NCBI GenBank assembly: GCA_051294905.1
Contig: CM119371.1
Coordinates: 16,680,001-16,744,000 of the forward strand
Direction: 5' to 3'
DNA from: Botryllus schlosseri
Lineage: Eukaryota
Length of the DNA stretch: 64,000 bases
Position numbers and translations under genes: made by a program
The notes under the pieces: model-generated
What the model was told of the DNA's origin: nothing
Seen by the model: only the letters and a program-made list of their open reading frames with translations
The model's database searches: none
In this document: positions 19,420 through 60,868 of the stretch, in pieces
How the letters are laid out: each line of letters begins with the position of its first letter
Position numbering within the stretch: position 1 is the stretch's first letter

Positions 19420-19577
19420 GTTTGTTTGTTTGTTTCGGGGTATTCATGGTGTTTATCGACTACTATGATCATTTACACCAGGCCGATATTCTTCTTATTT
19501 TTCCGTATCTGCCGACTTATAGCACGGCCCACCTCTAAGCTTTTTGTAAGACACCGCTGACGCGGATGTGGTGGCGA
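19420..19577 (-). mobile_element. SINE family 1, 3' half
   Basis: Near-identical reverse complement of 20241-20397; (CAAA)n tail. Confidence 0.9.
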
Positions 19578-20130
19578 CTTATATTAACACGACACAAGAA
19601 ACTCATAACAGCGCTGCTCACGGACACATACATATAACGGAACACAGACGATCTATATAACTCTTATACGATACACAGTGCTCAGTAAACTGTAACGAAG
19701 CTCCAAGCTAACCCCGCGCACACATACCCATCAGCCTAAACCTATCCCAGCAGCAGCCTTGTCATCTACAAGCGAGTACGGACTACCAATGGTGCAACAT
19801 CACTCCCTAGGTGCTAGCGTAGCACCGTCAGTGACTAAGCCGTGCCCCAGCCAGAGACTCCGACCGGTACATCCAACTCAAGCCTAGTAATACAAACCCA
19901 ACTACCTACCACTTCACGCCCTAACTGCCTAATACCACCACTACTTCACGCTGCTGCTCCCAACTACTGATACTTTACGCTACCAAACTCAGAGACATAT
20001 TCACTCGCATCCATCTTCACAGCCACACTCTCAGCCAACTCTTTTTTTTCCGGCTCGCCGTATCCGCCGGCGTTCGGCGTTCGCCCTCTCTTAAATATAG
20101 GGCTGCCTCCCGCTCGGGGTCTCCATTACA
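19578..20130 (-). mobile_element. Possible truncated solo-LTR-like segment
   Basis: The minus strand begins TGTAATGG with TATATTTAAG about 30 nt in; the segment is GC-richer and strand-skewed. No terminal CA or TSD is visible. Confidence 0.3.
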
Positions 20131-20174
20131 CAGTTTTGTTGTTTTTAATTTGATTTTTCAATTTTCCAACTAAG

Positions 20175-20397
20175 GGGTTCGACCGAGGTCGACTTCTGAA
20201 TTCCGATACCTAAGTGTTGGAGGTTTACCTAGGCTCCGCCTCGCCACCTCATCCGCGTCAGCGGTGTCTTACAAAAGCCTAGAGGTGGGCCCTGCTATAA
20301 GTCGGCAGTTACGAAAAATAAGAAGAATATCGGCCTGGTGTAAATGACCATAGTAGTCGACAAACACCATGAATACCCAAAAAACAAACAAACAAAC
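20175..20397 (+). mobile_element. SINE family 1 (from B-box region to tail)
   Basis: GGTTCGA...GGAGGTTTACCTAGGCTCC...AAATGACCATAGTAGTCGACAAACACCATGAATAC(CAAA)n. Confidence 0.9.
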
Positions 20398-20399
20398 AC

Positions 20400-21205
20400 T
20401 CTGTGATTGCTATGCCTCCTGTTCTTGTGTTCAATATATATTTTTCCTTCCTCTTTGCTCCGAAGAGGTAGCCTTCATTTGCGATTCGGTAGCTAGTTAC
20501 TTTTTCTTTATTGTTAAGTAAATCATTGAGGTTTTGGAAAAGTGTATTTGCATCCAATTTGCTTCTATTGCCACTTTGGTATGCTTCGCCTCGAAGAGTT
20601 TTTTCGTCGCTAGGTATATTTCCTTGTGCGTTGCTTCTTTCCATTTTTCAATTTCCTATTCCATGTTTTCATACATTCCTATCATACTTCTCCATTCGTC
20701 TGTTAGTTCGGTTTTGTGTGGCATATTATTTGTGAAAAGATTTTTGTTCCATTTCCTTATAGTCGGTCCCAATAGGTATAATTCGTGGTGGTGCCAAAAT
20801 TATGTTGGTTCGTCCAATTTCGCCAGTATTCCAATTTTTTCCAGTTTACATGTTTTAGTTTTTGCCTCTAGATGTGGTATTTCCATCTCTCCTTCTTTTT
20901 TTTGTTTGGTCAGTTTCTTTCTAGCTATTATTTCAATCTTTTCAGGCTGCCACACAAAGTTGAAGTACAGTTTGTTCAGAGTCGCTATCATCTTGTTGCT
21001 GAGTGTGCTTGTCTTCGCTTGGTGTATGATCTTAGGCGTTAGCACGGTGTTGAGTATTAGCTGTTTGCCATACCAGCTGAGGTCTCTTTTACTGTAGTCA
21101 TATAGTTTCCTTCTTATTGTTTGCGTAGTTTTGGACCAGATTTCTTCTTTTTGGTTTTCTCCGGTGTACTGTAAATACTTTTATTCCTGGCTTAATTTGA
21201 TTTTT
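20400..21205 (-). pseudogene. L1/Tx1-clade LINE ORF2 fragment (region C-terminal to RT)
   Basis: KRDLSWYGKQLILN, FNFVWQ...RKKL...K.EG.MEIPHL, and NL...NKEKVTSYRIAN; frameshifted. Confidence 0.8.
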
Positions 21206-39462: not shown

Positions 39463-40616
39463 ATGTCGTGTACCAGATAAATGAAGAGACGAAGATGACA
39501 GCTGAAGAACTAAATGAGCAGAATGACCTTGCAGAAATGGATCTCGCACCGCTAAAGACTGAATACGACACTCGTTATAGCCGCCTGTTACTCGGCAGAT
39601 CAGTGAGACGCTACGATAAAAAAGTGAATGCTAAAGAAAGAGAATCCCATAACGCAGTCACTCTGGAGACAGTACACCAATGCCCGATAAACGTATTCTC
39701 CACAACAGTGTTACTTGTTGGCGGACCAGGCGAAGGAAAGACCACGTCTGCAATAAAGTATATTAACAGAGCTTTAAAAAGGGAAATTATCGGACCCTCA
39801 GATGTTAAACTCATCGTCTTCATTAAAGGAGAAGACATAGACTGGGAGAGCCAATGCAGACCTTTTGAATTGTTATTCAAAGATCAATTCGCCAATATTT
39901 TTACAAGTGAGGAAGACTCAAAACCGCTTGAGGAATGGATAGCAAAAAATCCATCTGAAGTTTTAGTGATTATTGACGGCATCGACGTAGCCAAAACTGA
40001 TTCAATTAGCCCCGCAAAGACAGCTTTGAACAAAGTAGTATACCCTATTTCCATAATATTGAGTCTTCTGCGACGCGATATTTATAGAGGGATGTGGATA
40101 ATGTGTACTGCGACTCCTCAGTGGCTTTGGAAATTGCCGTATGTTCTGGATATACAAATTGTCAATATCGGCGGCTTCGAAGAAATCGACGTGCTAGATA
40201 TACTCGTACAGCTCACGGGCAAGCGAAAGCGTGTTGGTCTTTTACTACATTATTATCCATCTATAAAAGACATGTGCAAGACACCAGCTATGCTGATACA
40301 CATGGCTGATCAAATCAAAAAGAAGAAACCGATGACTGATATAAAAATTCTTCTTGATGCGATAAACTTTTTCGAGGCAAACCATGCCGGCAATGAGAAG
40401 ATCGGAAACAAGGAGATGGAGTTTATAATGGCCGCCGCACACAAGGCAGCAGCATTGGGAAGGATGGAGTTAGGAATGGAAGATTCCGATAAGAACACGG
40501 CTTATGCATTGGCTCATTACATTTCGGTTACGTATCGCCCTATGGACGGCAGAAATACAATAAAGACCATACAGAATCACGATCTTCGTTACAGATTTAT
40601 TAGCAAAGCAATTCGA
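39463..40616 (+). CDS. NACHT (STAND) NTPase exon of an NLR-like gene
   Basis: Walker A GGPGEGKTT, Walker B VLVIIDGID, sensor-1 region IMCTATP, IGGF, CKTP, and YRF at the exon end; acceptor ACAG at 39459-39462 and donor GTGAGT at 40617. Confidence 0.92.
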
Positions 40617-41173
40617 GTGAGTATGCATTATTATGACGCGTACAGTTGAACTTGAATTACATTTCGCACATGCAACTGGTCAAAAAAAATCCTCCAACGT
40701 TCAAAATTAAAATACGTTTCCATTCTTCATCGCTCTGCTCCGATATACATCAAGGTGTTAGGAAATACATTTCACCCGAACCCCCTCGACAATACATGAC
40801 TATCCTATAAATATCAATTACACTGGTCAACATATATTTTTAGGCAGACAAAGTAAGTGGTTTTGGGGGTTCTGAAAGGCAATGATTCCGAATATGACCT
40901 TAGTTTTTTTCGAATTTGCTCTTGTTGAGGAGATAACCCATGGGGCTATTTTGACCAGAATCCCCCATTTTCGAGGTAATGACTAGATAATAAAAAAATC
41001 GGCTCAGTAGTACTCTAAAGTTTGGAAATTCAATCTACTTGTTATTCTTACACACAGAAGACTCTTTTAAATCAAAATATAGGAACAGCACTATATTTAG
41101 GAACATTAGATTTATCATAATTACAGACTTTCACGGATATCATGAATTGAACAGTATATTCATATTGAAATGA

Positions 41174-41217
41174 GCCCGAATATTTTCGGCTGACACTCGT
41201 CAGGGGTAATCGTCAGC
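41174..41217 (-). ncRNA. Candidate minimal type I hammerhead ribozyme in a short repeat (about 41147-41285)
   Basis: Minus strand CCC-CUGACGA-GUGUCAGCC-GAAA-AUAU-UC-GGG: complete core, 3-bp stem I, palindromic loop 3; stem II has only one pair. Confidence 0.5.
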
Positions 41218-41530
41218 AACTAGCAGAGAATTGGAAAGAACATTGTATATCAACAATCGTATCACAAAATATGACGTCACCAGCATGAAAATTCGAAAAT
41301 GAGAGAGCGTTCAATGTACTATTTTTAGGATATCATGAACATAAATAAACTCCAGTCATGTATATAAGTATTTACCTAGATTATGTGGCATTAATTCAAT
41401 AAGTGTTACGTCAACCACCTATTGTAAATTTGATGTAATTAGTTGGAATATAATAATATTGATATATTTTAAATAATAATTGGTTTTTCGACGATTTTCG
41501 CCTGTAATCTAGATAGTGCAGTTTCTCGAA

Positions 41531-41757
41531 AGGTTCCGGCAATGGTCTGACATAATATGTTCAATTCTTCATCTCATCTGCCCTGATATCATTCTTTTGT
41601 CGTTCTGATGTTTTAGTAGAACCTCTCCCCTTGCTAATTAACAAGGAAATCAGGAAATATATCAAGATGAGTGAGCAGGAAGTGAACTTTCATGCTCATG
41701 TTTGAGCTCCAGTTTTCGATATGCAGATACGAATTTTCGGACCAACTTTTTGTAGTT
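41531..41757 (-). pseudogene. Chapaev3-type transposase C-terminal remnant
   Basis: NYKKLV..F..AYRKL..NMSMKVHFLLTHLDIFP...QGERF...I...YQGR...SDHC, with stops and frameshifts. Confidence 0.8.
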
Positions 41758-43371
41758 GAGTGCTTTGTGATCATCAATTTTTTTTTATTTACTACATCTT
41801 AGGAGAAATTACATGCAGTGAACTCCTTGCAAATGTGCAAATGGAATCTTTAATCGGTATTCAAATATACCAGATACCAGATATAAGCTTCTCGTTTGAT
41901 AGGGTTACTGGGTATACCCACTTTGTTGACTCAGCGGAAAATTATAAATTTACCAGTCGAAAGAAATGAGACGCATAAGAGTATTATAGGTAAGCCTTTC
42001 AAGGACCAATTTTACAGCTTTATTCTCCTCTTTAATATTGGTAGAATGACCAATAGATACGGGAGAATACGTATTTCCATGGTGCAAAAGTACTATTTTT
42101 AGACTTGACAGACTGCTTTTTTGACAAAAAAAATTTCGCATCGTGTCATGTTGATATTGACAGAATGACTGAGAATGACATGAGGGTTCTTCATAGTGAA
42201 TTAGCTATTTATGCGCAGTATAAAATTAGAAAAAAACTACGATTATCTGCCAACCGAGTGAAATATTCAAGAGTAAATACAGTAATTTTGGGCTTTTTTA
42301 GGGGTATAAATATCTTCTGACAAAGAGCCAATCTGACAAAACTAATGTAATATTCGTAATCAGCAACCTCAAAAACCTCAGAAACGGCTCTCAGATGGCC
42401 TGTCTAAAAAATAATCATTTTGTTGCCCAGTGTTATCAATTACGCACGAGGACCAACTTGGAATATATGTACTGTGGAGCAGTGATCCAAAACCCTTTTC
42501 AGTTCGTACCAAATTTTTAATCCAAGTCCCCTCGCGGGAATAACAATTAGATATGACCAAGGGAAACAGTACGCAATTCAACGCACAATGCGTCATATGA
42601 GTATAACGTATGATTACTAGTGTGAAAGCGCTTATGCATTCAATAAATCGTCTTTTACGCTGATTGGGGCTCTGAGTAGCTTGCGTCGCGGCAACCGTTT
42701 GCCGAATATAACATCAAATCGGGCTACGTTGCTGCATTCCCCAATTAACCTTCACAAAGCCTTCTCGAGGAGGGATTGATTCTCATTTCTCAGGCATACA
42801 CAATATCACACTTTCCACTTCCGTGCTCCAATCAAAATGACTGTCACGAAAATCGGACTCACGATTTATCTAGAGCACGGAAATGTGGTTTCCAGCGCTT
42901 CTGGGCATAACAAAATGTAAGGGCGAAGAACATGTGTTTTCAAGACCAATTGTGTAAAGATGAAGTTTTTGACAAATTTAGTAAAAAAGTTGAACATTAA
43001 AAAATTCATCACGGCCCACCTGAAATAGCTTCGCGACCTAGTGGTTGGGAAGCTCTGCAACAGAGTCATAGCAAAGGGCTTGCGAATGAACAATCAATAA
43101 AGATTATTAATTGCATAGTAAACATTTCGTCTAGAATGGAAAATATTAGCTTTAAAAGGTGTATAGTGAACCGTCAAACTCCATGGATATAAAATTGTAT
43201 GTTTCATGGTTTCACAGTTGCGGCTCGGGCATCTCCCTTAGCACTTTTATACAGTGGAGATTCACCGCATTTGTGATTGTCCTATGGTAGCAGCCGCAAG
43301 ATATCCCAAAAAATATTTGGAATCATATGCCGTCAATCCTAAATCAACTTGTGTATTTGAACTTCATTCAG

Positions 43372-43916
43372 GATCTCCTGGCTGCATTTCATTGGCTTTC
43401 AATCAACAATAACACAAATTACCGGAATTTACAAGAAACTCTATCCTCCACTGACATTCCCAATTTCATTCTTCTTGGAGTTGCAATCATCGCGGACGAA
43501 GACACTTGGCGAGTTGTAATTTCGCTATCAAAAACAAGTCAGTTCACGCCGTAATCTGTCTTATCCGCGTATACTGCATCCACAGAAGTAAATTATTAAT
43601 GGCTCATTTATACTACATAGGTGAAGAGACGTTGAGGCATTTACAGCAAGTACTGCGGAAGTTTCTAGAATCAAAGAATACAAGAACAACGATAAGCGAT
43701 GTGAAAGATCTTCGAATACTGCGTCAATGCGCCCCTCTTCTAAAACGTGGAGTGATAACTAGAGTTACCTCGATAAAAATCAAAACGGATTGTGACGCAG
43801 CCGATGTAGTAGCCGTTGCAGAATCCATTTATTCAGTCTCTAAAATAAGGGCGTATAGCAATATGAAGATATATGCGTCGTCGCTGTCGTTATTAGAAAC
43901 AAAAGTTGCTGTGGAG
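43372..43916 (+). CDS. NLR-like gene exons 43372-43537 and 43621-43916 (winged-helix/HD2 region)
   Basis: Splicing gives YRFISKAIR/DLLAAFHW, aligning to the NLR motif YxFxHxxxQEFxAAxY; phases 0-1 and 1-0 are consistent. Confidence 0.85.
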
Positions 43917-44266
43917 GTGAGAAAATGAACCATGATAATAGTGACATTTTCTGCATAACATTGCGATTACGTTCCACTGAATGTAATCAACCTTTAGTTA
44001 GAAGATCAGTCAATATTTATTCGTCACTCATGACTGCAAATCATATACATGCAATAGTTAAGAGCGAAAACGGTTTAGAATTTTAATGCGATGCCGATTT
44101 CAATAATCTTGTTATTTTGCATATCATTAGCATCAAAACATCATCGAGATTATGTTACATAGGTCAAAACCAGTAAATGCATGCGCCAGAGCGATTAATT
44201 GGAAAATATATTATTTTAAATTTTGTAATCAAGTCGTTGGTATTTACAAGTGTATATTAAATTAAG

Positions 44267-47200
44267 ATAAACAACTTGAAAATCGCGGGAGATATGCAGG
44301 AAGATGCTCAGGAGTTGTCGAAGCTGCTTGAAACGTGCTCCTGCTCCGAAAAGCCAGGTTCTATCACATTTCAAATGCAATCCGTTGAGCTATCGGATGA
44401 TAATATGAAATACGATGTTCAGGTATGTCAACTTGTATATACCGAATACTATCGCTGCGGGGATTAACGAATTTCATAGTCCGGCTCAGATCCTAATACT
44501 TAAAAATGAAGACCGGATCCCATTCCACTCCAGCCATCTATAAAATGTATGAATCCAGCTTTCAGGCGAAGAATGGATATGGCAAAATTCCTCGGTCTAA
44601 TCACTAGTACCCCGGGTCGTATGCCGAAAAGTAGGCATGTGGATTCGATCCGTAACCGGTTTTATCAGAACCGCTGAAGTATGGCAGCAGTCATAAACCA
44701 TCGTAAATCTCTCGTCCTTTGGTAGAAATCGTTACTTAATGAATGTTCATGTCTATTTATTGATGTTCGAAACCATGTCGATGTTGATAGTTATCATATG
44801 GCAATAGAAATGGTCTCGAGCGAACGTGTTGTATTTATTCCGCAGCGCAAGCTCCTGCAGGTGAAAGAATTGAAGGAAACCACAATAAGCATCATAAACA
44901 ACCTATTCCATTTCACGAGCGGGGGCGCGGATATACAAGTGCAAACTGTAAACATGAAGACGTTACCTAGACAAAGGATGCGCGCGCTCCTTGAGAAAAT
45001 AACCACGATGCCGGAAGATGCCAACAACTCTAAATTGAAGGTAAATCGACTTTGGATAGTTGGTCATCATTATGGCTTAGCAGCATTTCCATTCCTCGGT
45101 AAATAAATACTGATTGTTTGTTTGTGAAATGATCACAATCTATTCAGATACAACGACGCTGCTAATTTTAAAGAATACGAAACTCTCGGCATGAGACTAT
45201 TGCTTCTGACGGCTTTTTTGTGTGGTAAAACAGTGAACCGGTGGTTCCGAAACTACTGAGTGTTTCTTTTCACACATTGTTGAACACAATGTCATTATCT
45301 TCAAAGATTCTTTATTGTTAAATTTGCCGGATCGAGTAACACTTTTTGTCTTACGAATATACTTGGTGGCCAAAGTAATATTTCATACAACGAAACAACA
45401 ACAACAACGACGACGACAAAAACAACAATAAATAAACAAACATTAACAATTTTCGAGCGTAATCAATCCATGTGATACGCATGCTTCATTTGATGTCCAG
45501 GTGAAGGAATTGATTTGCTCTGAGCAGACACATTTGCCAAGAGAAATAGCGGATCTGATGACGAACACCGAATCCCTTCAAGTTGAGGTTTTGAAGTATG
45601 GAGATGTAACGGTTCTATCACGAACCGAATCGGTAAGGTTTTTGTAATTGAAAATAGAAAGTGATCAAACGTACGAATTTATATCGGTTATGAATGTTTG
45701 TGTGACGTGATTTATCAACTATGTCACGTGTTTGATTTGACATCTTCTATTGCGTCATGATTTGAAATTTATCTCTCTACACCAGCCACGAATAGTTTCA
45801 CAAAATGCCATGTTATTCAGAGATGTGTACGAGCTCTGCATTCAGATTCTCAATCGAAATAGTGGAATATGAGTATCTTAACATTTAGATGTCGATTATA
45901 TCTTTTGTTCCACAATTTCTTTAATCAAGTGGCACAATGAACAACATAAAATGTTGCAATATTGTCACATTCCTTGATCATCAACGTTTCCTGCTACTAA
46001 TCTTTGCAAGATATAATTTATTCGGAAATATAACTATGCGGATGTTCACATATCGTCAAGCATCACAGAAATATGGATAGAAAACTGAGTACATATTTAT
46101 ACGATAAATATTTGCAAAGCAAATACGTATCACTTTCAGTGTAGATTTTAGTAACTATCGATGATAAAGTTAATGTGTTGTTGACGCTATTTCATACACG
46201 TACGAACGACATGAACCTGCTTCGAAACCCGTTAAAAGTGGAGTCGATCCCAGCATTGAATATAATTTGTTCATTGTAAACGTGTACGATACATCTGGAA
46301 TGAAGATTATTGTTGCGAATCGTGCGTCAGACGTTTGTTTGCCCTATGTGTGTATTTTTTTACTTTCAATTCTACACGTTCAAAATATGTAGCCTAGTAT
46401 AGATATCGAACACACTCCGTTGTAATAATGCGAAGGTCTACAATTTATTCATATCTTGACACGTGTCTTCCAGAGTGTCTATGTCAATAAAATTTCATGC
46501 CTCACAACGGACGCAGTGTTAACAGCCTCCACGGGTTTGCTATCTCTTCTGAAGACCGGTTCTTGGAATAAATTGTGCACAAGAGATTTCAACATATTCG
46601 TAGAATTCGAAACCGATAAGGTAATGGAAGTTTTTCCCGAATTCTCATCTTTTGATTTCAATCTTAGTTCGTAGAAAATATGTCGGATATTCAAGTTTTA
46701 AATATTTTCAGAACAAGCAACGACATCCAGCCAACCTGCGAGTACAACGCAGTTTACAGGGAAGCATTAATAACGAAGCATATGACCAGCTCATTCCTCT
46801 CATGCTCAAACTAGGGTGTGGAAATATGGAATTTTGTGACATGTTGTTAACGGCACAATACATCTGCAAGAACGGAAAGAAAAACGTGTGTGTATTTTGA
46901 CGGCCAATTATATTGCATTTGATTATGATGTTCTCGACAGGTGGATAAAATTACGCTTTCGCGAATTTCACACGAGTATTTACGAGTGAATTCAGCTCCA
47001 GATTTCAAGATCGCGAAGTCTTTGTTTCAAAAAGCGGGCGCACGCTTAATTCAAATCGAATCGTTACTGTTTCATAGAATCTCCACTGATAATTACTCGG
47101 TAACTCATATTTTGTACCTACGAATACACTGAAGGATAATCTGAAGCTACTGTCTTCTTCAGCGAGCAACGGAATGGAATTATAAGGTATTGGATCTACA

Positions 47201-50200
47201 ATACGAGGCATTCGGATTTTTGAAGGATCTCCTATTCTTATTGAAAGCTCCGCCGACGAAAGTCGATCGTTGCTCACTGCTGAGTCTGAGTGAGCTATCG
47301 TCATTACAACTACTGGCGTCTAATATATCCCAGGTGGTATTCAGAAGCATTCTAAAAATGTAACATCATTCACATTTTCTTATTCAATATTACAGATCGG
47401 GAATTTAGAAATAACTGTCGAAGACATTGACGCGTTGAGTAATCTACATGAATTGATTCGAGGGATATGTTGGATTAATATCATTCTGAATCTTGAATCG
47501 CTTCGTATAGTCATCGATAAGGATACGGTAGACTAATTAGTTTATATCACAACTCAGTTTTTTTTAAATGCATTTTCATACGTTGTATTATTTAGGAGAG
47601 TCATATTTCTATATCAGAAATGACTGTGGACCGATTCAGTAGGTTATACGGAAGTCTGCTCCCTCATCTCCATAAAAATTCCATTTTTCGGGTGGAGAGA
47701 CTGATCACGTCGCTAGAGAAGCACAGAAAATGCAGGGAAGTGTTCGAGTGTTTTACCAACGGCGAGAAGAACAAGAAAATTATTACATTGCAAGTGTGTA
47801 CAGTTTCTCATATGACTAGTGCATGCGACATTATCAGAGGCAGTCAGAAGGGATTTTTTACTATTTTACCAGTAGTCGGGTTATTCGTTTCTTATTCTTT
47901 TACAGCTTCCTCGTGGTTTTTGACGTTTCCAACTTCTACTTCAACAGCTGTTTTATAACCCAAATTATTTCATACGGTAATGTCAGTGTTAAGTGTCACA
48001 AAGTATAACGGAAGTTACCCATTGCGACGACAGAATTGTGTGAGGTATACACGCCCGAGCTCGCTCGCGCGGCGGGGGGGCACAAAATTATTTCATAAAT
48101 CGACATGGATTATAGAATATTTTGTGGAAGATTTCGTACAACTTTTTAGTTTTCCTATTTGGTATAATAAAATGTCTACTTTTCGATATGCATCATTATT
48201 AAAAAAAACATGTCAACGTCGGTTACTCTCTCTCCACGACCTACCAATACTTCTGGAATGTGATTTCGCGAGTTGTGTTACCAAATGACACTTACATATA
48301 ACCTATTGCCAACAGTCCATAGGCACAGAATAGTCCTGCTCTTGTAATCTGAAGTCACAAACTTCCTCATCTCTACTAGTAGATCTGACCACATGAACCG
48401 GGAGACGATAGAAAATTATCAGAAATATATGCAATTGCCACTATTATAGACATAATTCAATACTTGTCCCGAAATACTTTCACGAATCGCGCAACTACGC
48501 ACACATGTAGACGTTTCCATAAAAGAGTAAAACTAAAGCCTGTCGTGAAGGGTGGTTAATGATCTCATGGGCGGAACAAACGTTTTTTTGGGCGGGGGTG
48601 GGGTGGGGGTATCAAAGTACTGTGGCGACCCTGGATTTGCGGATTAATGTTGACATCACGGATCAAGGGATGATTGTTAAGGCCTGAGATGTAGATAGTT
48701 TTAACTGTGAATGTACCTGCGTATATTAACGATCCTAGTAGGCTATATCGCAGGAAATGGAAGCATATAGGAAAATCATTTTTCCGTTGATTTGTGAGTG
48801 CAAGTGTTGCTTCCTTTGACAGGTGGACGAGCTTGTGAGCAACGGCGGCGTCATTGATTTGTTACAATTACGCTTGGAGAACGAATCGCGATTTTTGATT
48901 GTTTCAAAGATTCAAACCGATTGCGAAACGGTTATCAATTTTAAAAATAATCAAAACAACACGGTAAGCTATTAATCTAATTACTAAGCACTCGTCAGTA
49001 ACTGGATAATTGGTTATTAGGTTATCCTGCAATATAAATTTGAAGTTGAGCCAAGTAGGCTTGAGTTGAAACTGAACGGCAACAAAGCGTGAAACACTCG
49101 ATTACATGTTAATTCACGAATTGACTTCGCACGATGTCTGAGCGAATCCAAACATTTATAGCTTTCATCTTCTTTAGACAATTCAGCATAATCCCATGAA
49201 CTCAGCAGGATAAAGAAAAAACTAAATAGGTGTATTCTGGCTTCTAGAATATTCCCAAGATTCTCATATGACAAAATGGGCCATTATTATATAGCGTGGT
49301 AGAGATGGTCGAATGATTTTTTCAACGCATGTTTTCCGTCCAGATTGACACAGTCTCAATCAACGTTCTGACCGTGGAATCACTGATTGATATATATACC
49401 CGTGTAAACGGAAACGGAATGAGAGCTCACAGATCGAATTGGATCTTCGTGATCGATATGTGTTATTTTGAAGAAGTTGGAGCTGTCGAATTAAAGAATC
49501 GTGCGTATGGATTGAATCGTCAAATGACTTATAGCGCCATGATCTCGAACGTAAGAATGGGGGTTGCGAACTACGTTCAATATTCATATCAGATCGGGTT
49601 CAGTCGGTGACTATCGCCGATTCCCTGCCTTCGCTTCAATATATATTGTATTTAGCGGCGGCGATCGACATAATTGGCACAGTAACAGCAGCAGACTTGT
49701 ACAAACTAACATTTTTCTCAAAATTTGAAAATATAATTTGGTTTAGAACTACTCCTTCTTTAAAATTCACTATTCGAACTAAAATTCGATCTATTTATTC
49801 ACAACTCGAACTGGAACCAACTACTTTGAAACCCCCGCAACTAACTAAAACTCAAGTAACTGATATAACAAATTATACTGAATTAAGAATCAGCGAAAGG
49901 ACTGAGTTTCGATATAAACATGAGAGGGGCTCCTACACCCAAAACCGGACCCTTCCTACGACACTGTAGTAATGATTCTGAGCTAGCAATGGCTGCAAGA
50001 ACATGATGCAAGAGAACGCCGATATCACGATTCGCGCTAAATTACGACACGTGTAGGCTATTCTAGTTTTTTCACAACTCAATTATTTTTTAAATGCGGT
50101 TCTGGAATCACACACATTTGTAAATCCGAAACTGGACTAGAATTAGAAATACACCAAAAAACGTTGGTCAGTAGACCGTCAATTATCTAGATTCTAGATT

Positions 50201-50588
50201 GTTAGTATGTACAATTCTGAACAGCAAGTTGGGATAAATAAGAATGGTGTCTATCATAGCAAGCTAGTTCTAATTGATTATATGGTAGGGTATTCAAGTA
50301 GCCTATTCTGTAATTCAAATCGCAAGATCAGATCTAATCTTTAAGTATTTGCGAAATATGCATGTCGTTTAAACATATAATCACGCAAACATGACTTTGA
50401 CGATTCCAATGCTTGAGTCTTTGAAGACTTGAGATTTTTTTCAGATATCATCACTGAAGTTTCCAGGACGTTTCGACGTCGAAGTATTTAATTGCTACAA
50501 CAACCTGCTTCGCAGTGGTCAGGTTAGAGAGATGGTGTTTCAGAAGGACTTCGAATTCAGAACGGGGCGATGTTCTGGCGAGCACAAT
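44267..50588 (+). CDS. NLR-like gene: 12 consecutive phase-0 exons (44267-44422, 44861-45040, 45501-45632, 46474-46620, 46712-46885, 46941-47099, 47163-47333, 47396-47527, 47596-47793, 48823-48963, 49344-49550, 50445-50588)
   Basis: Each exon is AG/GT-bounded, stop-free and a multiple of 3 (132-207 nt). Alternative acceptor possible at 44846 and alternative donor at 47336. Confidence 0.78.
48015..48559. mobile_element. Possible piggyBac-like MITE (intronic)
   Basis: TTACCC..CGACAG at left and CTGTCGTG..GGGTGGTTAA at right; imperfect. Confidence 0.35.
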
Positions 50589-50658
50589 GTAAGACTGTAT
50601 CCGCAATTACTTCGGAAATCATCGTAGACGTTCAAATCCAAAACCTATACCTCTAATG

Positions 50659-51458
50659 CAGAGGTGGTCAACGGCCGTAGAAGGGAACTTGTGCGGCTGT
50701 CGACACGTAATTCAATTAGTATGTGTTGTCGGCCGTCGACATGCGATTTGACTCCCGAATTTTCGAGATATTTTAATTAGTCTCGAAATTTTCTTCGCTC
50801 TGTTCGCGACTCAATGTGTCTCCATTTTTTCAATTTAATATAGTAGCACCCTTTGCAATCTCAGCCCCACAGTTGACGCATAGAGCAGAGGAAAATGATG
50901 CGCACCATATACAAATATCAACTTGGAATCTTGTCCTCCTCACGAAGGAAATTTGCTTCTGGTACGTTTGGGAAATTCCAGTATGCCCGCAATCCTGATT
51001 GGAGGTCAAGAAATAACAGTATGCAACAAAGTGACCAATAACAATTCGACCACCCGAAGATGCATCATCATTTATAACTTGGCCTAAATTTTCGAAAACA
51101 CCCCTCCCCTCAACTCTACTGGTGAATCGGGTCACAGGGGCAGGGGAGAGATAAATATTTGATCGTAATATGCGAAATTACTAATATTATTTACAAAATT
51201 GATTCGTAAAACTGGAACACTTTTTGTCATAACGAATCCCAGTAACTATTCATAACATGACCACATCCGACTTCGGTGAGTATAGTAAGCCGATATGAGA
51301 ACGTAGATTAGTCCGGAGTTCACCCGAAATGGACAAGGACAGTTTAACAGGGGTATTTGTGTCCAGTTAGTTCATTACGGCCATGTCCTGGAATGCGGCC
51401 GTAAGCTACATAAGTAGTAGAAATGCGGCCGTGAATAGCAAAAAGGTTGCTCATCTGG
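50659..51458. mobile_element. hAT (Buster-like) MITE
   Basis: CAGAGGTGGTCAAC...GTTGCTCATCTGG; CGGCCGT repeats; TSD CTCTAATG/CTGTAATG. Confidence 0.75.
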
Positions 51459-51739
51459 CTGTAATGTATTCCCAATTCACAGACATATCCGAGGTCTTTT
51501 ACAATTCAGTGCCTAAGTCACATCCAGTTTGCAAAACATTATCGATCGATATTGTATAGGAATGGTGGGGTTGGCTTGGCTGCTTGTTGTTTGTTGCTTT
51601 GGTATTCACACTGTTTCGGCTTCGTTGCTCATTTTGTACCAAGTCTATATTCTTTAGCTATGTTTTCATATCTGACAACATGCAGAACGGCCCTGATACG
51701 TCCTACGCCTTGTAAGTCAAAGTTTTCGAGGGTCAGATA

Positions 51740-52125
51740 TAGGGATGCCTTCAAAACAAAATTTGTTCAAAACAAACATATGGAAAACAAGGCCCTTGTT
51801 TATAAAATGTTTTTTTATTTATTTCAAAGCCATGACGTCACGAATATCAAATTGGGACGTCATCGTGGATTGACATTGACAACTAAAAATATAGGGTAAA
51901 GATAGCTCATTTGACGAAATATCTGTACTATCGTTGTTGAACCGACTGTTTTTACGGTTCCACCACCCCATATCGTTATAAGCCGGCTATATCGGGTGTT
52001 AATTTTCCTTGGTCTAATGCAACATGTGTTTTGGTAAGTATTTACACAATCATGGCATAAATTCACAACTTAAAAAAATAAAAAATACCAAAATGTTTCA
52101 AAACACCTTTTTTAATGCACCGCTA
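51740..52125. mobile_element. hAT MITE, inverted relative of 37214-37636
   Basis: Colinear reverse complement; exact TSD GTCAGATA. Confidence 0.88.
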
Positions 52126-53046
52126 GTCAGATAACGAGGCATGTAGTTGGTTAATCTACAGCCACCGGCGCGAAATCTCGTTTCGATTCTCGTCAGTAGC
52201 ACGTTTTGAAAAGTGGAAGGTAAGTTTGGTACAGATACTGGTGATTCTTACAGTCAAGAGTCCAATTAAATTGGCCGAAATCTGTTCAACTTTTGATTAA
52301 ATTAGGCATGTCTCGTGTTCATCTGGGAGCCGTAATGTCATAGTAGTTTGTAAATTTTGTGACTCTTTCCCGGTCGAAGCAAAGTTTGCAGCCGATGTAT
52401 GTCTAACTGCGAGCATATTGCTATCATAAATACCTTCATGTCTGTATTTCCCGACTATCCATCGCAGTTATGTGACATGTGTTTTGATGACCCTACTCGA
52501 TTTTCAAAAATTATATAACAACGCCTTATATCAATATGACACCGGAAAAATTTATAATGTACTTGAATTCACACAATTTGTCTTCCAATTGTCGAAAGCT
52601 GTTTACGATCCAATATTCTATTCAAATAAAGATTATCGTCGCCCTGGTAATCGTAATCAAAATGTCAAGCACTCTTCTAGCAACGTTTAACCACCCGTCA
52701 GTTTACTTGAGGAATAATACAAATAAGCCGGCAATAAATTGATGGATATGGGTCAATATCCCGCCACACTGGATTCAAGAGAGCATAGTAAACAAATGTA
52801 ATCGCTTTTTCTTTACAATGTCCATCAGCTCAAATATAAGCAGTAGAGATTTGATAACATTGATTTCATAAAAGCCTCCTTAGCCTTTTAGGTCTGCAAA
52901 ATTGTAACACATATATGAAGAGGTATTGTTTATATCGGTACTAGATTATCGTAATCGAAATCTTTTGACGCGTCTGTTGAAACAATTGCTACAAAACAAG
53001 TACCCTGGTGAGTGGTGATATGCATATCAATATTTACTATCCAATA

Positions 53047-53414
53047 GAGTGATTCTCACCCTTTTTCGGTGGATCGCCCCCTTATCAATCACGACACAAA
53101 TTTTCGGCCGCCATATTTATGGATTCGAAAAAGAGGACATATAATTGTGGTATTTATTCACCTGACTCTGATCGACAGCGAATTTACCAAAAAAGGTCAT
53201 TTTTCCGAGGTGGTAGGTACTTGGAAAACCGGTTTCCCCGTCTGCTTTAAGTTGAGTGGACCTTTTTACGATTCATATGCAGAATAAGCCGTCTTCACGC
53301 GCATTTTTGACCGTGTTAGCTAAATATATATCACTGTACGTTCGAACGTTTTCGCCCCCTTGTTTCCCCAAATCGCCTACTGCGTGGCTATATCGCCCAC
53401 GTTGAGAACCACTG
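53047..53414. mobile_element. Diverged hAT MITE related to 13234-13604 (inverted)
   Basis: Ends TATCGCCCACGTTGAGAACCACTG; TCGCCCC motifs. Confidence 0.7.
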
Positions 53415-53663
53415 ATCTCCTTTAGCTCCCATTTGTTCATGTTAGGAGGAATCGCTGACGGGCCGCAAACAGATGGATCACCAAAAATCTGCCAGTGTCT
53501 CCCGAAGCGAATATCTTTCCTAAGTGTTTTAGTTTTAATCGCATCATCGCCTGATGTTACAAATATGATTCAGGATTTGACCATTTGAACACTGATTTCC
53601 ACTGAGGAGCATCCGTGGTTTTAACTAGAACAAATCTATTCCATCGTCAATTTGAAATTTCAG

Positions 53664-56600
53664 GGAGAATTATTCGGTAATATCGACTATATTACGGTAA
53701 GGGACCTGAAAAGCTTCTTGGATACCCTTGGGGGTAAATGTCCAAAGATTGTGGAAGTGAAGCAATGTGAAATCACAGTTGACCAGAACGATATTCGCAA
53801 ACGACTCACGGGAATGGACGAAGATATGTACAAAATATTGATGGTAGGATACACGCTCAATATGATTCCTGAGTTGCTATATATGGCATACAGCGAGCTG
53901 AAATAAAATAATTGGAATAATTGGAGGGAAATCTGACGGAATTTTAACAAACAAGTGATGGCGGTAGTAGGACATCGCTATTATTTTGATATCAAGCCCT
54001 GTATTCGAGATTAGTGTTGCGCGTTCGGATATCTTGTAATTGGCTTTTTAGCATGCATGATACAAAATACACGCATGTGAAGATATCAGGTTTCTTATCA
54101 ACATTCCCTTCGAATCAGATGAACACCCTATCAAAGCAAGTGGTATGAGAATTCAATGCGTACCGACATGGTCAAACTATTCAGCGTTGGTACTCAAGTA
54201 GAACCAGAAGTAAAGTTTTAAATTTCTTTTCAATTACAAGGGAAGTAGTGATTTACAGGGCTCGTCAAAAATACTTCTAGGATAAGAAGAAAATTGAGGG
54301 GGTCGCATAACAGAAGACACTACCATTAAAGTTGCATTTCGATATTGCATTCAGTTATCTTGATACCTGGGACGTTTCTCGTAGTTGGTATTACGATTTC
54401 GCGCAACAAAGTGATCAAAGCCACACCCCAAAACTACTTAACACTTAAAATTAAACGTTTACAAAGTAAGTAGTATAGCCTTAAAAACTGTAGAAGTCGC
54501 AGTTGTCAAAAACATAACCACTTGACCAAGCAGTGAAATAGAAACACGTACGTCAGTACTCAAAAAAGTAAATGTACTTCGGTAGTGAAAATCCCATGAT
54601 TGAATATTCAATGAGGTCTTTCGGAGATGACTATTTGCATGCAGTGTGCAAACGCGAACCACACGATAGGTTAACCGTTTACCTCATCCAGCAATATGTA
54701 TTTAATGAAATATATTGAAATGTATCAAAGAATGCGGCTCTGGAGGCGACACGTCAGAAGATGAAAGAGCAACTCGACATGTTTACAGCTATCACACGTC
54801 AATTTAAGGTCAGCAACAGAACCGAACTAGTTGCGAAGGCTTATTCACTTTATGCGTTCAAGTAAATTTCATTCTGAATATTTCATTTGCAATTGCAATA
54901 AAATTATTATAGCTGTTAGCGTCGTTACTCAAAGGTCATCAATTCGACATTTTCCAAGATCCTATATAGAATAGGCTACACTGTAAATCTAAGGGTGGAA
55001 AATATGTGTACTATCTCATAGTGGATACCAAGTTGTGCTTTCACACCAATTCAAATGAGCGAAAATGTTCCAAATACACAAATCGTCATGTAAACATATC
55101 TGAGGGGTGTAAAGTAAATTGTCTTTTGGCTATACCACAGTTCTTGAATTTATTGGGGTTACTAGCAACAAAACTCTCTACACCCCAGAGATATATCTCC
55201 ATCGGAATTGATGCATTGAACTATAATTTCCATCCATTGGAAAGGCGTGAAAGCACAATTTGGGACATGGAAGCGTTTTTTATTTCATTTGCATCACCGA
55301 TTTTCCTCTCGAGAGCCATACGCCACCACCAAAAGAGCCACATATGGTTTGAGCTCATAGGCCCCGACACCTGGTATAAATATTCTGAAGGAATTCTTCT
55401 GATAATAATTATTAATAGGATCTTCGCATAGAGACATTGACAATAAAAGGAGGGGGGCAAGATGTCGAAGCAATCGCCACAGATGTAATTGCGGGAAACG
55501 GAAATGATGAACTCTTGTTTGAGGTATGGCCTTTTCAGGTTAAGCACTCACATTATAGAGGTTTCTGATTATAGTCATTGCATAATTACCGATATAGGTG
55601 ACGGCGCGTATTTACTGAGTGAGGTTTGCGCAATGTATGATCTCGTTGAATTTTTATTATTGTAAAGCCTGAGTCTGATATCAATTGATCGTAATTTGAG
55701 AGGATCCGTTCGGGCTGTGGAGTCGGTAAATTTTTCCACCGACTCCGGCTCCGACTCCGACTCCACACATTTTCAATATACCGACTCCGACTCCTGAGTC
55801 TTTAAATGTACCAACTCCGACTCCGACTCCTGGGTCTTTAAACGTACCGACTCCGACTCCGACTCCCGACTCCGACTCCAGCATTATTACCAATTTACTT
55901 CGAAAATTATATGCCACATTAAACACATGCAAACATATGATTAACTGTGGCATGCTAAATTGTTTCATTGTGGCACAGCTCGAATTATCCACTATGCAAT
56001 TAACATGAAATAAAGATGTGCTAAATATCCTTCCTTATTCAAGCTTTTATAACATGGACTCTCCAATATCCTGAAATGTATGGATCATTCCAATATGGCA
56101 GATATCCAATCATGTATAATAAAAATGTAGATAAAATCCAAGTGTAGCTCTTGTGTATGACTCAGCAACTAATAAAGAGATTGAACTTACTAATTTTGTC
56201 ATTGCACACTATCCTGGTTACAAGCACAAACACTCTTACTACTAATAATAGACATTGGTCGTAAATGGAATTTAGTTAAGTAGTCAAAGACCATAGCCTA
56301 TGTCTATAGTCTACATGTACTTAATCAAGTATTCAAGGATTGGGATTTGCAGTCTTTCTTAATCATTTGTTCGACCCAAACAGCTAAGCTACACTACAAA
56401 TATTTTTAATTTTGTAACGTGGGAAGCATCGTTTGGTCATATTTACATTATTTTTACAATTTTACAATACCAGCCGATGCATTTTCTCTGTCCCAGTATC
56501 ATGGTATAATTCCACAAATTACATCAATTTTGACTGCATCGCGAAAACGGATCTTGCGATTTTCTTCCCCTCTGCAACTGAGTTGTAATTTGCAAGAAAT

Positions 56601-59600
56601 GTTTAATTTTATCTATATCAGGGGTGGGCAACTTTTTCGGCGAAAGGGACACCTGAGATTTACGAACCATTGCACGGGCAACTGGAATGTGGATAACCTT
56701 TTTTTAGTCGTCGATATAGGAGCGAACCGAATTAGGTAACATTGCAAACAAGACTTATATTAATACGCTCTAAAATTGATAACAAAATGTCATGCAACTG
56801 TGCAGTGCGCAATCAGGCCATGGTCGCGCGAAGCGCGAAATTTTTTTGCAAGATAACGACTGAATTAGGCTATAGCTATATTAATAAATATGTCGCTAAC
56901 ATACATTGGGGGTCGCATCTGTATACTACTGGGCTCATTTGGCAAGGACAGGATTATTCGACGTTTAGACATACCAAAATCGACGGTATCAGCTAGTGAA
57001 TATGCCTCTATCATTTTGTGCAAATGTTTTGTCGACGATCTCGCTGCGAGTGCACAAGCGAAGCCGTATCTCCTAATTGCGAATATAGTTAGACTCTATT
57101 CCGTGAATAATATGTATTTATAATTTTCAGAAGGGGCTCAAATACTGAATGCAAGAAATCTAGTGACAATGAATCATGCGAAGTACCTAGAAAAATTTCT
57201 AGTCAAATAAATATGATATGGAATATTCTTCTTCATGGTCATATACGAAGATCTGGGATAAATGTGGCTGACCCCTGGATACGTCAATGCATCAGAACTG
57301 TTGTTTTAGTCATCATCAAATTTCGCGTTCATGCTAATCAAATTTTGGTTGGCCTTACAATTGTACCTGATGTCATAAATAATTTCGAGAATTACCTCGC
57401 AGGCCACACCTAACCTTCTCGTAGGCCAAATTTTGCCTGCGTGCCACTTGCTTGCCGCACCTGATCTGCATCGTTACTAATAACAGTGATAGGTGGTACA
57501 TAAAAATTCTATTGAAAATTCCTAGAAAGCAAATGTTTTCATGATAGAGAAGTTGGAGTCGGAGTCGGAGTCGAAGTCATAGTCATTCTCACAAACTCCG
57601 ACTCCGACTCCATCCAGTATTTTCCCACCGACTCCGACTCCATCAAGCGAAAATCACCCTGACTCCGACTCCGACTCCACCGACTCCGACTCCGACTCCA
57701 CAGCCCTGATCCGTTGTCGTTTTATTTACTGTGTATTCTATTTGACCGTGTTGCAAAAGTCCGTCAGGCTACAATCACCACATGTTTATGTTAAATAAAG
57801 AATAACAGTAACTAAGTGAGCAAAGTTGAACTTCCAATTTTTCATGACCCACGTTGCTTGAACAATAGGATGTATTTCATCTTAGCTGTACCCCACATTT
57901 GAGCATGCCACACAATGGAAAACAACAATTGATCATGGGACACTTTAGCATGCGTCACTTCAGTATGCGACTTTATTACCCAACACTAACCCTAAACCGA
58001 AACATAACACCGATATAAACCCCTATATTAATCCTAACCCCAAGCCTTACCCTAACACAACCCTAAATCAAACCCTGACCAGACCATAGCCCTTATCTAA
58101 CCCACATGCTCATGTGTCGCATGCCGAAGTATCGCATGCTATACTGTCGAGTGCTCTTATTTCGATGAACCCCATCACGCGGCTTCCATAATCCTGCACG
58201 ACGGGAATGCGATTCTGGCAATTATAATTTTAAAAACCACTGCTCTAAGTCGTAAAGTCAATACGAGAATGAACTGGGTACCCGCCTGGCACATATGACC
58301 TCAATGTGACAACAGATTAAAGAACAACGATATACATATCATTGAATTGTTTCAGGTCGCGAATGTAAAGTTTGACACATTGACGCTGGAAAACCATCAG
58401 TTGATGCTGAAAGTTCTCAATTCTGGCGTTGGCTTGGAAGCGAACGTCTTGCTTGTCAACGAACCGAAAGAGAAACTTGGAGATTGGACAACAACAATGA
58501 ATATGATCAACAACAATAACTTCAAGGTATAGCTAGCCCTGTTGCTTATAAAGTCACAATATACTGTTACCTTTTAAAACAAGTTCATGCTGAATCTAGT
58601 GTCTCTTAGTCACCAATGATTCTCGTATGCGAAAGTTATTATTTGAATTTAGATGACGTTAAAACCGAGGGTGGAATTCATTGCAGGTACTTTCAATCAA
58701 AACAAAGCATAACCTGGATGATGTACTCGGAATAATTTCTGAGATATCACCGATTATAAAACCTACCTCTATCCTGGCCGAAGATGCAAACTTACAGATC
58801 ATGAATCATTCTATAAATAAAACCGTGAGTTCAGTATTATCGTTTTAGGCAAAATATCGCATTGTCTTATATGTACCATATCAGTGTTCGGGAATTCATG
58901 GCTCGCGACCCACACATGGGTATTTTCAGTCGTGAAGAATAGATCTGGGGGGAAAAACTTGACAATAATCCAGTAGCACGAATATGACAAATTAAATATC
59001 CATAGGACTACCTTATTTATGATTTTTCAAAAGAAGCTTATATTTGTGGTGAATTTTGGACTTGTTACAACGCCTTTAATTGTTAAGTGAACAATAATTA
59101 ACTTGACGATCAGTGTAAGCTCAGGGGTCGAGACTAGGGACCCGCTAAAATGGTGTGGCACATGGTTAGCCTTTGATAACACTTGATTCGCATTGACGCA
59201 TATTCCGAAATTATTCACTGATCATCAGTACGTTCGAGGCGCGTTTGCGAGGCGCGAATTAGTAACGATCTCGCAGTTACAAGAGATTGGTATCAGGGGG
59301 AAGTTGGAACTGTGATAATGAGGTTTGGCACGCGGTGGAACAAATTTTGACTGCATTCCGCGATCAGTGGGAGTGTTATTACATCGCATCACTTTTGAAT
59401 ACATAAATCCAACGGTGACGTCACATTTGATTTACGTTGTTGTATGGCTCTTTGGGAATCACAATTAAAAATATAGGACCAACATGACTCCTTTGGCGAC
59501 AAAGGTTCCCGGCAATTCTGCTATAATGACAAAGTCGTATTTCAATAGTATATTAATATTGAAATGAACCCAATCTGTTTCGGCTGACACTCGTCAGCGG

Positions 59601-60029
59601 TAATCGTCAGCAACTAGTAGAGAATGGAGAAGAGCATTGTATATAAGCACTCGCATCCAGAATATGATATCACCATACCCCTACCCCTGAACAATGTCGG
59701 CCGAAAATATTCAGGTTCATTTCCATATGAATATACTATTCAACGGTATATTGAAGTTCTGTTCCTCAAAGAAGCTCTTCAAGGTCGTATTTAATATAGA
59801 TATATCGTCTACATAGAGACCATATATGTCGTAGGTTATCTGGAAATTCGAGACATAGGCCTACCGTAGTCTTCGAAGTCCTCCGACCAGGGCGAATCCG
59901 AATTGTGTACCCGTTTTCCTTATTAGAAACTGCTGGTAGCTGTAGAAGGAAATGCGCAATCAAAATCAATAAGAGAACTTGGCGGGTCACTTAAGATGGG
60001 TGTGACTACAAAGAATGAATATGACAAAG
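53664..60029 (+). CDS. Further NLR-like gene exons: 53664-53843, 58356-58526, 58687-58824 (phase 0) and possibly 59927-60029
   Basis: TTTCAG/TTGCAG acceptors, GTAGGA/GTATAG/GTGAGT/GTAAGC donors, open frames and the same repeat-like peptides. The stop codon was not located. Confidence 0.65.
55711..57708. mobile_element. hAT MITE with (GACTCC)n subterminal arrays, containing a nested MITE
   Basis: GGGCTGTGGAGTCGG / CCGACTCCACAGCCCTG; ATCCGTT on both flanks. Confidence 0.88.
56619..57463. mobile_element. hAT MITE, relative of 778-1471
   Basis: CAGGGGTGGGCAA...TTGCCGCACCTG; flanks ATCTATAT/ATCTGCAT; shared internal blocks such as TAATTGCGAATATA.GTTAGACTC. Confidence 0.8.
57937..58150. repeat. 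Small inverted-repeat element with a degenerate (CCTAAC)n core
   Basis: TAGCATGCG..ACTTC.G.ATGCGAC and its reverse complement flank telomere-like degenerate repeats. Confidence 0.6.
59544..59741. repeat. Inverted pair of the hammerhead-like repeat seen at 41147-41285
   Basis: 59544-59675 is colinear with 41150-41283; 59683-59741 is an inverted partial copy. Confidence 0.8.
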
Positions 60030-60090
60030 GTAAGCGTATAAAGCCATAGATATGCATTGTATGCATGGAACCCATAATTATACTTATAAC

Positions 60091-60868
60091 TAGGGCGATG
60101 TTTTTTGACGTAAAAAACGGAAGATTTTGACCTAAAAGGTTATTTCGCACGTAATGTTAAAATTGTACTACTTATCTTCATTTCTGGTTGGAACTGTCTG
60201 TCCTTACAAAGTAGATTGGCTCAAAAACTGACAAATGTTTACATGAAAAAACTAGTGTTTTAACGAAATCTGTCCCTATGAAGAATACCAGTAGTTACAT
60301 CACGTATTATGGTGCAAATAATTAAAATTTGTTGTAGTACAACGAACGAAAGATACTTTCCTATATTCTCGGGTAAAATTGTCTGTCCTTACTAAGTAGC
60401 TTGCCAAGAATGGAGAAAGAACGTTTAACAACAGCAGTTGTTCGCTGACAACACTGAAGTTGTGTGCACACTGCTGGTGACACACGGTGTTGTTTCATTC
60501 TGACAATGTTGTCTATATCACAATTTTTCAGCTTTCGCTTCTTGATATAACAATCATGCAATGTCCAAGCAGTCTTGCTTCAGTTAGGATATTGCGGTAC
60601 GTTGACCATAAAACCATGTCACTATTTGTTTCATTTGACCGTTTATGATTCAGAATGAGCAGACGATGGGCCGTCTACAACGGTAGGCCTATAAAGTAGG
60701 CTACAAGCTGTAAAATATCAAATGATAGGTTCACCGACAGCGCAAAATCTACGATACAAACGAAATGCAGAGGTCAAAAAATATTTGACTTTGTAAACAA
60801 TTTTGACAAATTTTGACCGAACGCTACAATTTTGACTTGTTTTGACATGTCAAAAAAAAATCGCCCTA
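60091..60868 (-). mobile_element. hAT deletion derivative with a dimerisation-domain-like remnant
   Basis: TIR TAGGGCGAT / ATCGCCCTA; TSD CTTATAAC/CTTATTAC; minus-strand TTAVVKRSFSILGKLLSKDRQF resembles the hAT SxxxERxFS motif. Confidence 0.85.

Follow-up and report, generated by a model that had tools for sequence, protein, structure and literature searches.

What stands in the sensor position of an animal NLR-like gene (nucleotide-binding, leucine-rich-repeat type) when no leucine-rich repeat (LRR) can be recognised there? The question is raised by a gene of Botryllus schlosseri that lies in a 64,000-nucleotide stretch of chromosome C1 (C1:16680001-16744000; GenBank assembly GCA_051294905.1, contig CM119371.1, the assembly comprising 495.5 Mb in 219 contigs), which we call the window and whose GC content is 0.35-0.43. 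The gene occupies window positions 39463-60049 of the plus strand and has 21 exons (E1-E21), the first three covering the NACHT core with its putative winged-helix and helical parts and the other 18 (E4-E21) a long C-terminal tail. We find that it belongs to a lineage-specific NLR-like family of seven clustered copies, whose tail is exon-modular and matches no known family. The explanation that we favour as a whole, with a probability of roughly 55%, is that of an NLR family member in which duplicated strand-helix exons would build an irregular alpha/beta, likely LRR-like, sensor stack.

The nucleotide-binding core is readily identified. The open reading frame (ORF) at 39408-40649 matches the Pfam NACHT model (PF05729) over residues 100-265, with an E value of 3.8e-11 and 43.5 bits against a cut-off of 26.7. 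Its translation contains both Walker motifs, GGPGEGKT for Walker A (defined as GxxxxGK[ST]) and VLVIIDGID for Walker B (hhhhD[GE], with h hydrophobic), and the locus is a member of the NACHT (STAND, signal transduction ATPases with numerous domains) NTPase family with NLR architecture, as a sequence-only reading of the window had proposed. The end of E1 (...YRFISKAIR), joined to the start of E2 (DLLAAFHW), forms a segment that we take to resemble the winged-helix motif of NLRs. E2 and E3 have no Pfam match in single-exon scans, and their profiles match NACHT relatives weakly (E 0.0011-0.007 in a set of 36 proteins) at the places expected for the winged helix and helical domain 2 (HD2): that of E2 about 130-170 residues past the Pfam NACHT domain, where in relative P0004 the match at 380-398 abuts a Pfam NOD2_WH domain at 328-373, and that of E3 at residues 459-538 of relative P0012 (E 0.0011).

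Downstream of this core, E4-E21 are 18 coding exons of 78-207 nt, and each of the 18 introns, beginning with that between E3 and E4, is in phase 0. The exons listed in the sequence-only reading are each present on the plus strand, free of stops, bounded by AG and GT and in phase 0; that reading had counted 15 tail exons, and comparison with paralogs adds those at 54731-54808 and 55419-55523 and the terminal exon. Several of its boundaries move as well. E5, which it began at the residues VKEL (44861), starts at 44846, where the acceptor is conserved in 5/5 paralogs, and the gene, which it ended at 60029, runs to a stop codon at 60047-60049, position 60030 being the beginning of a donor-like GTAAGC. 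With these corrections its estimate of about 1350 residues rises to about 1463 (384 + 153 + 926, the last figure being E4-E21). All 21 exons of the window copy are open and have intact splice sites, and because the acceptor of E1 is in phase 1, at least one upstream exon is missing from the model.

Comparison within the genome shows that the array is shared. The NACHT exon gives at least 85 six-frame genome matches at E up to 0.001, and six close paralogs, with 44-69% identity to it, all lie on C1 at about 16.43-17.25 Mb, within 0.85 Mb. E12 matches the genome exactly seven times, always inside this cluster, and we therefore count seven family members. We compared the window copy (W) with five of the paralogous loci (pA to pE, 40-60 kb each), the sixth paralog being represented by 2 kb. 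Pieces of window ORFs align to the five loci (tblastn) as a colinear series of blocks on the gene strand, besides multi-frame matches to dispersed repeats. Splice sites projected for E4-E20 coincide exactly in 66/70 paralog acceptors (AG) and 60/70 donors (GT); the 14 shifted sites all remain in frame, 13 of them within 3-15 nt, the nearest in-frame acceptor of pE E10 being 75 nt off. Exon lengths are near-identical across copies, and the full set of 18 tail exons is present in W, pB and pE (pE E11, missed by tblastn, was found by eye at the expected place with the same 132 nt). For pA, the DNA compared ends after E18. No E17-E21 was found in 14 kb downstream of pC E16, and no E13 or later exon in 10 kb downstream of pD E12; truncation of these two copies, or longer introns in them, could account for this. 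Since W, pB and pE do not differ in their exon set, we regard the array as old and fixed, and the earlier proposal that skipping or duplication of exons diversifies the receptor finds no support in these copies.

The tail is under purifying selection. The ratio of nonsynonymous to synonymous substitution rates (dN/dS, Nei-Gojobori) over E4-E21 is 0.31-0.39 between W and its paralogs at dS 0.86-1.02, and reaches up to 0.58 in other pairs; the NACHT exon gives similar values (0.30-0.38), and no copy has a stop codon in E4-E21. The seventh member is encoded on the minus strand at C1:16664301-16674458. It ends about 5.5 kb short of the window and faces the window gene head-to-head across some 45 kb; the match to its NACHT exon spans only query residues 16-254, and E7-E12 are present.

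What the tail exons share among themselves is confined to their beginnings. The motif [VI]xx[LIVM] opens 9/18 W exons against a background of 0.061 (binomial P = 3.3e-7), and between 4/9 and 9/18 exons in the other five copies (P from 1.7e-7 to 9e-4); the sequence-only reading, with its own boundaries, had counted [VI]xx[LIV] at the start of 10/15 exons. When all copies are pooled, hydrophobic residues make up a fraction of 0.54, 0.82, 0.64 and 0.56 at exon positions 1, 4, 6 and 9 and only 0.10-0.21 at positions 2, 3, 5 and 8, giving an exon-start strand pattern h-x-x-h-x-h with hydrophobic residues at positions 1, 4, 6 and 9/10. A second strand of the form h-x-h-x-x-h follows 25-40 residues further on in most exons. 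In 11 real pairs, against one reversed pair, the best alignment begins no later than the third residue of each exon, and alignments are in register in 26/153 real and 12/153 reversed pairs. This exon-start motif is the sole feature shared between tail exons. On account of the 18 consecutive phase-0 introns and the exon-locked strand motif, we infer that a single exon beginning with a strand was duplicated to give the tail and that the copies then diverged.

No known domain family was recognised in the tail exons taken singly. At E up to 10, Pfam scans of the 20 W exons gave nothing except three chance-level rows at E of about 0.1, and neither 35 pB and pE exons with two read-through ORFs (E up to 1) nor 48 exon-start units (E up to 10) had any match. 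LRR models were thus matched by 0/20, 0/35 and 0/48 of these single-exon queries, and WD40, TPR and ankyrin likewise found no Pfam match in W exons, pB and pE exons or exon-start units, bearing out exon by exon the earlier statement that no canonical repeat of these four kinds is visible. The fragment models described below mix strand and helix, being neither all-beta nor all-alpha, which sets them apart from WD40, TPR and ankyrin. A profile of E11 and E12 together found two chance-level matches among PDB sequences (E 0.12 and 4), and the nematode families FBA_2 and FTH (PF07735 and PF01827) had no hidden Markov model (HMM) match in any exon or in the pD fragment.

Two introns are open in frame, those of pD E11-E12 and pE E8-E9, and so give translatable unspliced fragments of two exons. 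In the E7-E12 region of the seventh member there is no such read-through. The 87-nt pD intron yields a 138-residue translation, which AlphaFold modelled with 10 partial alignment rows at a predicted local distance difference test (pLDDT) of 70.6 and a predicted template modelling score (pTM) of 0.51. In this model E11 folds as strand-helix-strand-strand and E12 as strand-helix-strand-helix-strand, with strand-to-strand spacings of 25-33 residues; the intron-coded part is mostly of low confidence (below 50 at residues 45-60, block means 41-58 at residues 41-70). E5 alone, modelled from six sequences, gives strand-helix-strand-helix at a pLDDT of 55.5, a confidence too low for a fold search. With the pD fragment, Foldseek found nothing in the PDB at E up to 0.001, and Foldseek and VIA-align together returned generic beta/alpha matches (Rossmann- or TIM-like beta-alpha-beta pieces), with no LRR chain among the 50 matches listed. 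In a language-model look-up (ESM Atlas) the nearest clusters to the pD fragment were nematode FBA_2/FTH, with a score of 0.94 and a recognition value of 2006, below the 2300 mark; the pE E8-E9 fragment gave no usable match, so that the lead was not reproduced. The alternation of strand and helix proposed earlier, at about two units per exon, is therefore seen in two fragments, and the solenoid fold proposed with it finds generic matches only.

The nearest relatives outside the genome share the core and differ in the tail. Among 1.84 billion protein representatives the NACHT exon has 36 matches at E up to 0.001, the best at 29% identity; the top ones are ascidian Death-NACHT proteins (26-29% identity, E 8e-18 to 3e-11), namely Styela clava XP_077976001, XP_077966284 and XP_039248824 and the Ciona 'NLRP14-like' XP_078494019. 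In two of the ascidian proteins (P0001 and P0004) the C-terminus is likewise long and finds no confident match in Pfam. Unlike the window gene as modelled, these proteins carry Death domains, and their C-termini are dissimilar to E4-E21, so that only the NACHT exon aligns. Against the 36 relatives, E4-E21 gave no match by tblastn, a top hhalign probability of 0.8% with the concatenated family alignment, and a best E of 0.038 with exon HMMs, over short stretches only; a protein-database search for tail homologues found none. General full-text literature searches gave no description of the family among the matches listed; as they were not specific to it, a record in print may exist.

With animal NLRs (NLRP, NLRC) the gene shares a NACHT domain whose P-loop and Walker B are intact, a long C-terminal region in sensor position, a tandem gene cluster, and short same-phase exons that could be dropped in frame; to judge by the weak profile matches of E2 and E3, putative winged-helix and helical parts come after the NACHT domain here too. 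In NLRP3, as PMC11398476 indicates, skipping several LRR exons leaves the frame intact. The window family differs from animal NLRs in having no LRR signature in single-exon scans, no Asn ladder and no regular period, in tail exons that are mutually different instead of near-identical repeat exons, and in having no PYD, CARD or Death exon found upstream of the window gene (25.9-39.2 kb). Irregular or Asn-poor classes of LRR exist, and to these and to the nematode FTH/FBA_2 domains the tail is similar in placing a hydrophobic residue where the ladder Asn would be and in strand-helix units of about 25-30 residues. Both kinds are moreover rapidly evolving recognition modules, and FTH/FBA_2 clusters were the nearest named language-model neighbours of one fragment; FTH is described in passages of PMC12062965, which do not state its fold, as a substrate-binding, positively selected domain of nematode F-box proteins. 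Set against both likenesses are the absence of any HMM match and a language-model lead that is below threshold and unreproduced.

In the explanation that we favour, an ancestral strand-helix module exon would have been duplicated into a phase-0 array whose copies then diverged past sequence recognition; the diverged modules would form an irregular stack of alpha/beta type, most likely an LRR-like superhelix with an open face, and this stack, by analogy with NLRs, may keep the NACHT module inactive as long as no ligand or guarded host protein is bound. A solenoid fold of the tail is thus probable under this explanation, and a sensor or autoinhibitory role is suggested by the NLR comparison. Taken by itself, the specific proposal that the tail is an irregular, Asn-less, LRR-like open-faced alpha/beta superhelix serving as autoinhibitory and recognition module is tentative, and we put it a little short of an even chance.

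Several results weigh against this explanation. An hhalign comparison of 190 exon pairs reached a top probability of 3.7%, and the 153 pairs within E4-E21 averaged a score of 9.16 where reversed controls averaged 8.71 (Mann-Whitney P = 0.033), with the top real score (15.5) below the top reversed one (17.8); no hydrophobic period of 20-30 residues appeared in the 926 residues (family-averaged; autocorrelation and fast Fourier transform power spectrum). With scores so near those of reversed controls and no such period, the repeat that had been described at sequence level was not recovered. A profile of the 48 exon-start units found 0 matches among PDB sequences at E up to 10. The Pfam, PDB and fold comparisons used single exons or unspliced translations, which a domain spanning several exons could escape, and the tertiary packing of the pD model is weak evidence either way because of its 29 intron-encoded residues and its 10 partial alignment rows. 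On the N-terminal side, no effector domain (PYD, CARD, Death, TIR or BIR) was found by Pfam in 73 plus-strand ORFs of at least 40 residues at 25.9-39.2 kb, nor any conserved upstream exon in 13.5 kb, where tblastn and blastn against paralog upstream regions gave dispersed repeats and one 78-bp match. Finally, four raw RNA-seq runs (X3, X5, X6 and X7), 6-13% of each sampled and mapped to 40301-60300, left every exon-bearing bin at zero depth (43636-49638, 52307-55641 and 58310-58976), with reads only on repeats (about 41.0-41.6, 55.6-57.6 and 59.6-60.3 kb). The RNA mapping that had been suggested as a check therefore put no reads on any exon and yielded no junction evidence either way; the joining of the tail exons to the NACHT exon is supported by paralog colinearity and motif continuity, and not by RNA reads.

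How the tail relates to LRRs can be answered in more than one way. That the gene is a conventional NLR whose tail is a homologous, extremely diverged LRR domain would explain why the tail sits after NACHT, winged helix and HD2, the usual place of LRRs in NLRs, and why its exons are all of one phase; in NLRP3, as PMC11398476 indicates, several LRR exons can be skipped with the frame kept. Exon starts that fit L1xxL4xL6 with a hydrophobic residue at 9/10, the internal h-x-h-x-x-h strand, the unit spacing of about 25-33 residues in fragments and the weak FBA_2/FTH lead point the same way. We nevertheless hold it to be rather improbable: no LRR model matched any of the exon or exon-start queries, Asn stands at position 9 in only 1/9 motif-bearing W exon starts (judged by eye), a recurrence of LxxLxLxxN/CxL every 20-30 residues is not seen, there is no LRR chain among the Foldseek and VIA-align matches listed, and the second fragment did not reproduce the language-model lead. 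The tail might instead represent an undescribed alpha/beta repeat class outside the LRR superfamily that replaces LRRs as sensor and likewise came from duplication of phase-0 strand-helix exons, which we think doubtful.

A serious rival is that the tail forms no solenoid and consists of globular alpha/beta domains in a row, or has a new fold without repeats, with exon phase a historical accident or a trace of domain shuffling; this would suit exons that are each conserved across paralogs and unlike one another, the lack of periodicity, and a fragment model with long strands and Rossmann- or TIM-like matches. Against it stand the run of 18 phase-0 introns and a strand motif locked to the start of half the exons, for which an origin other than modular repetition is difficult to conceive, and the alternating h-p-h-p strands (h hydrophobic, p polar) suggest a sheet with one exposed face, unlike the buried strands of a Rossmann fold. 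Least probable to us is that the gene or the whole cluster is silent or decaying, so that its structure reflects past function. The zero RNA depth over exons, the missing start exon, the tail exons not found in pC and pD, and a NACHT exon no more than 29% identical to any protein representative are all compatible with decay; against it stand the open exons and intact splice sites of W, the stop-free tails with dN/dS of 0.31-0.58 across pairs, and the small fraction of each RNA run that was sampled. NLR-type genes, moreover, often show weak expression or are switched on only by a challenge.

Many invertebrate NACHT genes have been reported without LRRs, and the region in sensor position usually goes unannotated. 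The Botryllus family offers a comparatively validated case, with its seven copies, its 18 conserved phase-0 exons and, in that position, an orphan region under purifying selection, and it bears a clear signature of modular origin yet has no recognisable repeat. Should the tail prove to be an alpha/beta solenoid of a new kind, it would add to the recognition scaffolds that STAND immune receptors use; if it is a degenerate LRR, it would show how far LRRs can drift, with Asn ladder and period lost and the domain kept all the same. Either way this is lineage-specific detail and changes no principle.

Table. Exons of the window gene, in window positions; the last column gives phase (entering-leaving) and remarks.
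Feature	Position	Strand	Remarks
E1	39463..40616	+	pre-NACHT linker, NACHT NTPase, start of winged helix; phase-1 acceptor at 39463
E1 donor	GTGAGT at 40616	+	kept in 4/5 paralogs; GTAAGT in pC
E2	~43375..43537	+	putative winged-helix part (DLLAAFHW...); in 5 paralogs; boundaries less certain than E4-E20
E3	43621..43916	+	HD2-like helical domain; enters phase 1, leaves phase 0
E4	44267..44434	+	phase 0-0; alternative donor at 44422
E5	44846..45040	+	phase 0-0; 195 nt in 6/6 copies
E6	45501..45632	+	phase 0-0
E7	46474..46620	+	phase 0-0; 147 nt in 6/6 copies
E8	46712..46891	+	phase 0-0
E9	46941..47099	+	phase 0-0
E10	47163..47336	+	phase 0-0
E11	47396..47527	+	phase 0-0; 132 nt in 6/6 copies
E12	47596..47793	+	phase 0-0
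E13	48823..48963	+	phase 0-0
E14	49344..49550	+	phase 0-0
E15	50445..50588	+	phase 0-0
E16	53664..53843	+	phase 0-0; boundaries set from paralogs
E17	54731..54808	+	phase 0-0; 78 nt; exact splice sites kept in pA, pB, pE
E18	55419..55523	+	phase 0-0; 105 nt
E19	58356..58526	+	phase 0-0; 68% identical to pB, 44% to pE
E20	58687..58824	+	phase 0-0; donor GTGAGT at 58824 fits 138-nt length in pB and pE; alternative donor 58833
E21	59927..60049	+	terminal coding exon; stop TAG at 60047-60049

Some details of the gene model bear on how the exon boundaries are drawn. The E2/E3 intron is in phase 1, and E3 is 57-68% identical to its counterparts in pA, pB and pD, 54% to pC and 35% to pE. At the 3' end, the stops of pB and pE fall 0-4 codons from the same place as that of W, the W ending ...GKRIKP aligning with ...GAKIYP of pB. 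Because these stops lie so close together and the protein similarity of W and pB continues beyond the donor-like site at 60030, we take E21 as terminal and this donor not as the main route; the site (GTAAGC at 60030-60035 in W, GTAAGT in pE) lies 17-20 nt before the stop and could offer an alternative 3' splice route. The exons E8-E12 are tightly packed (window 46892-47595), with introns of 49, 63, 59 and 68 nt, and this short-intron block is kept in all paralogs examined; other introns of the gene reach 2.8-3.1 kb and contain repeats.

Beyond the family itself, the genome has a large NACHT repertoire: a Styela Death-NACHT protein used as query gives at least 41 matches at E up to 1e-20, P0002 reaching no more than 34% identity, and dense NACHT clusters lie on C3 (about 1.4-1.9, 6.0-7.2 and 33.0-33.4 Mb), C1 (23.4-24.8 Mb) and C9 (3.9-4.2 Mb). 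Elsewhere in the window, 18926-21180 on the minus strand is a non-LTR retrotransposon remnant, in which the ORF at 18926-19459 matches zf-RVT (PF13966, E 2.3e-4, below the curated cut-off) and the adjoining ORFs have no Pfam match. Intron 1 contains a dispersed short repeat (about 41145-41300) covered about 24-fold per strand in RNA runs X3 and X7. The alignments there show numerous loose ends as well as fixed differences, and copies elsewhere in the genome are the probable source of these reads. Towards the 3' end of the gene there is a related copy (about 59600-59780), and the two appear inverted, since reads link 41155 with 59746 across opposite strands. Between E18 and E19, the 2.8-kb intron carries (CCGACT)n and related tandem arrays of 30-36 nt (55751-55879 and 57661-57701), which create long spurious ORFs on both strands with translations such as TPTPTP, DSDSDS and GVGVGV.

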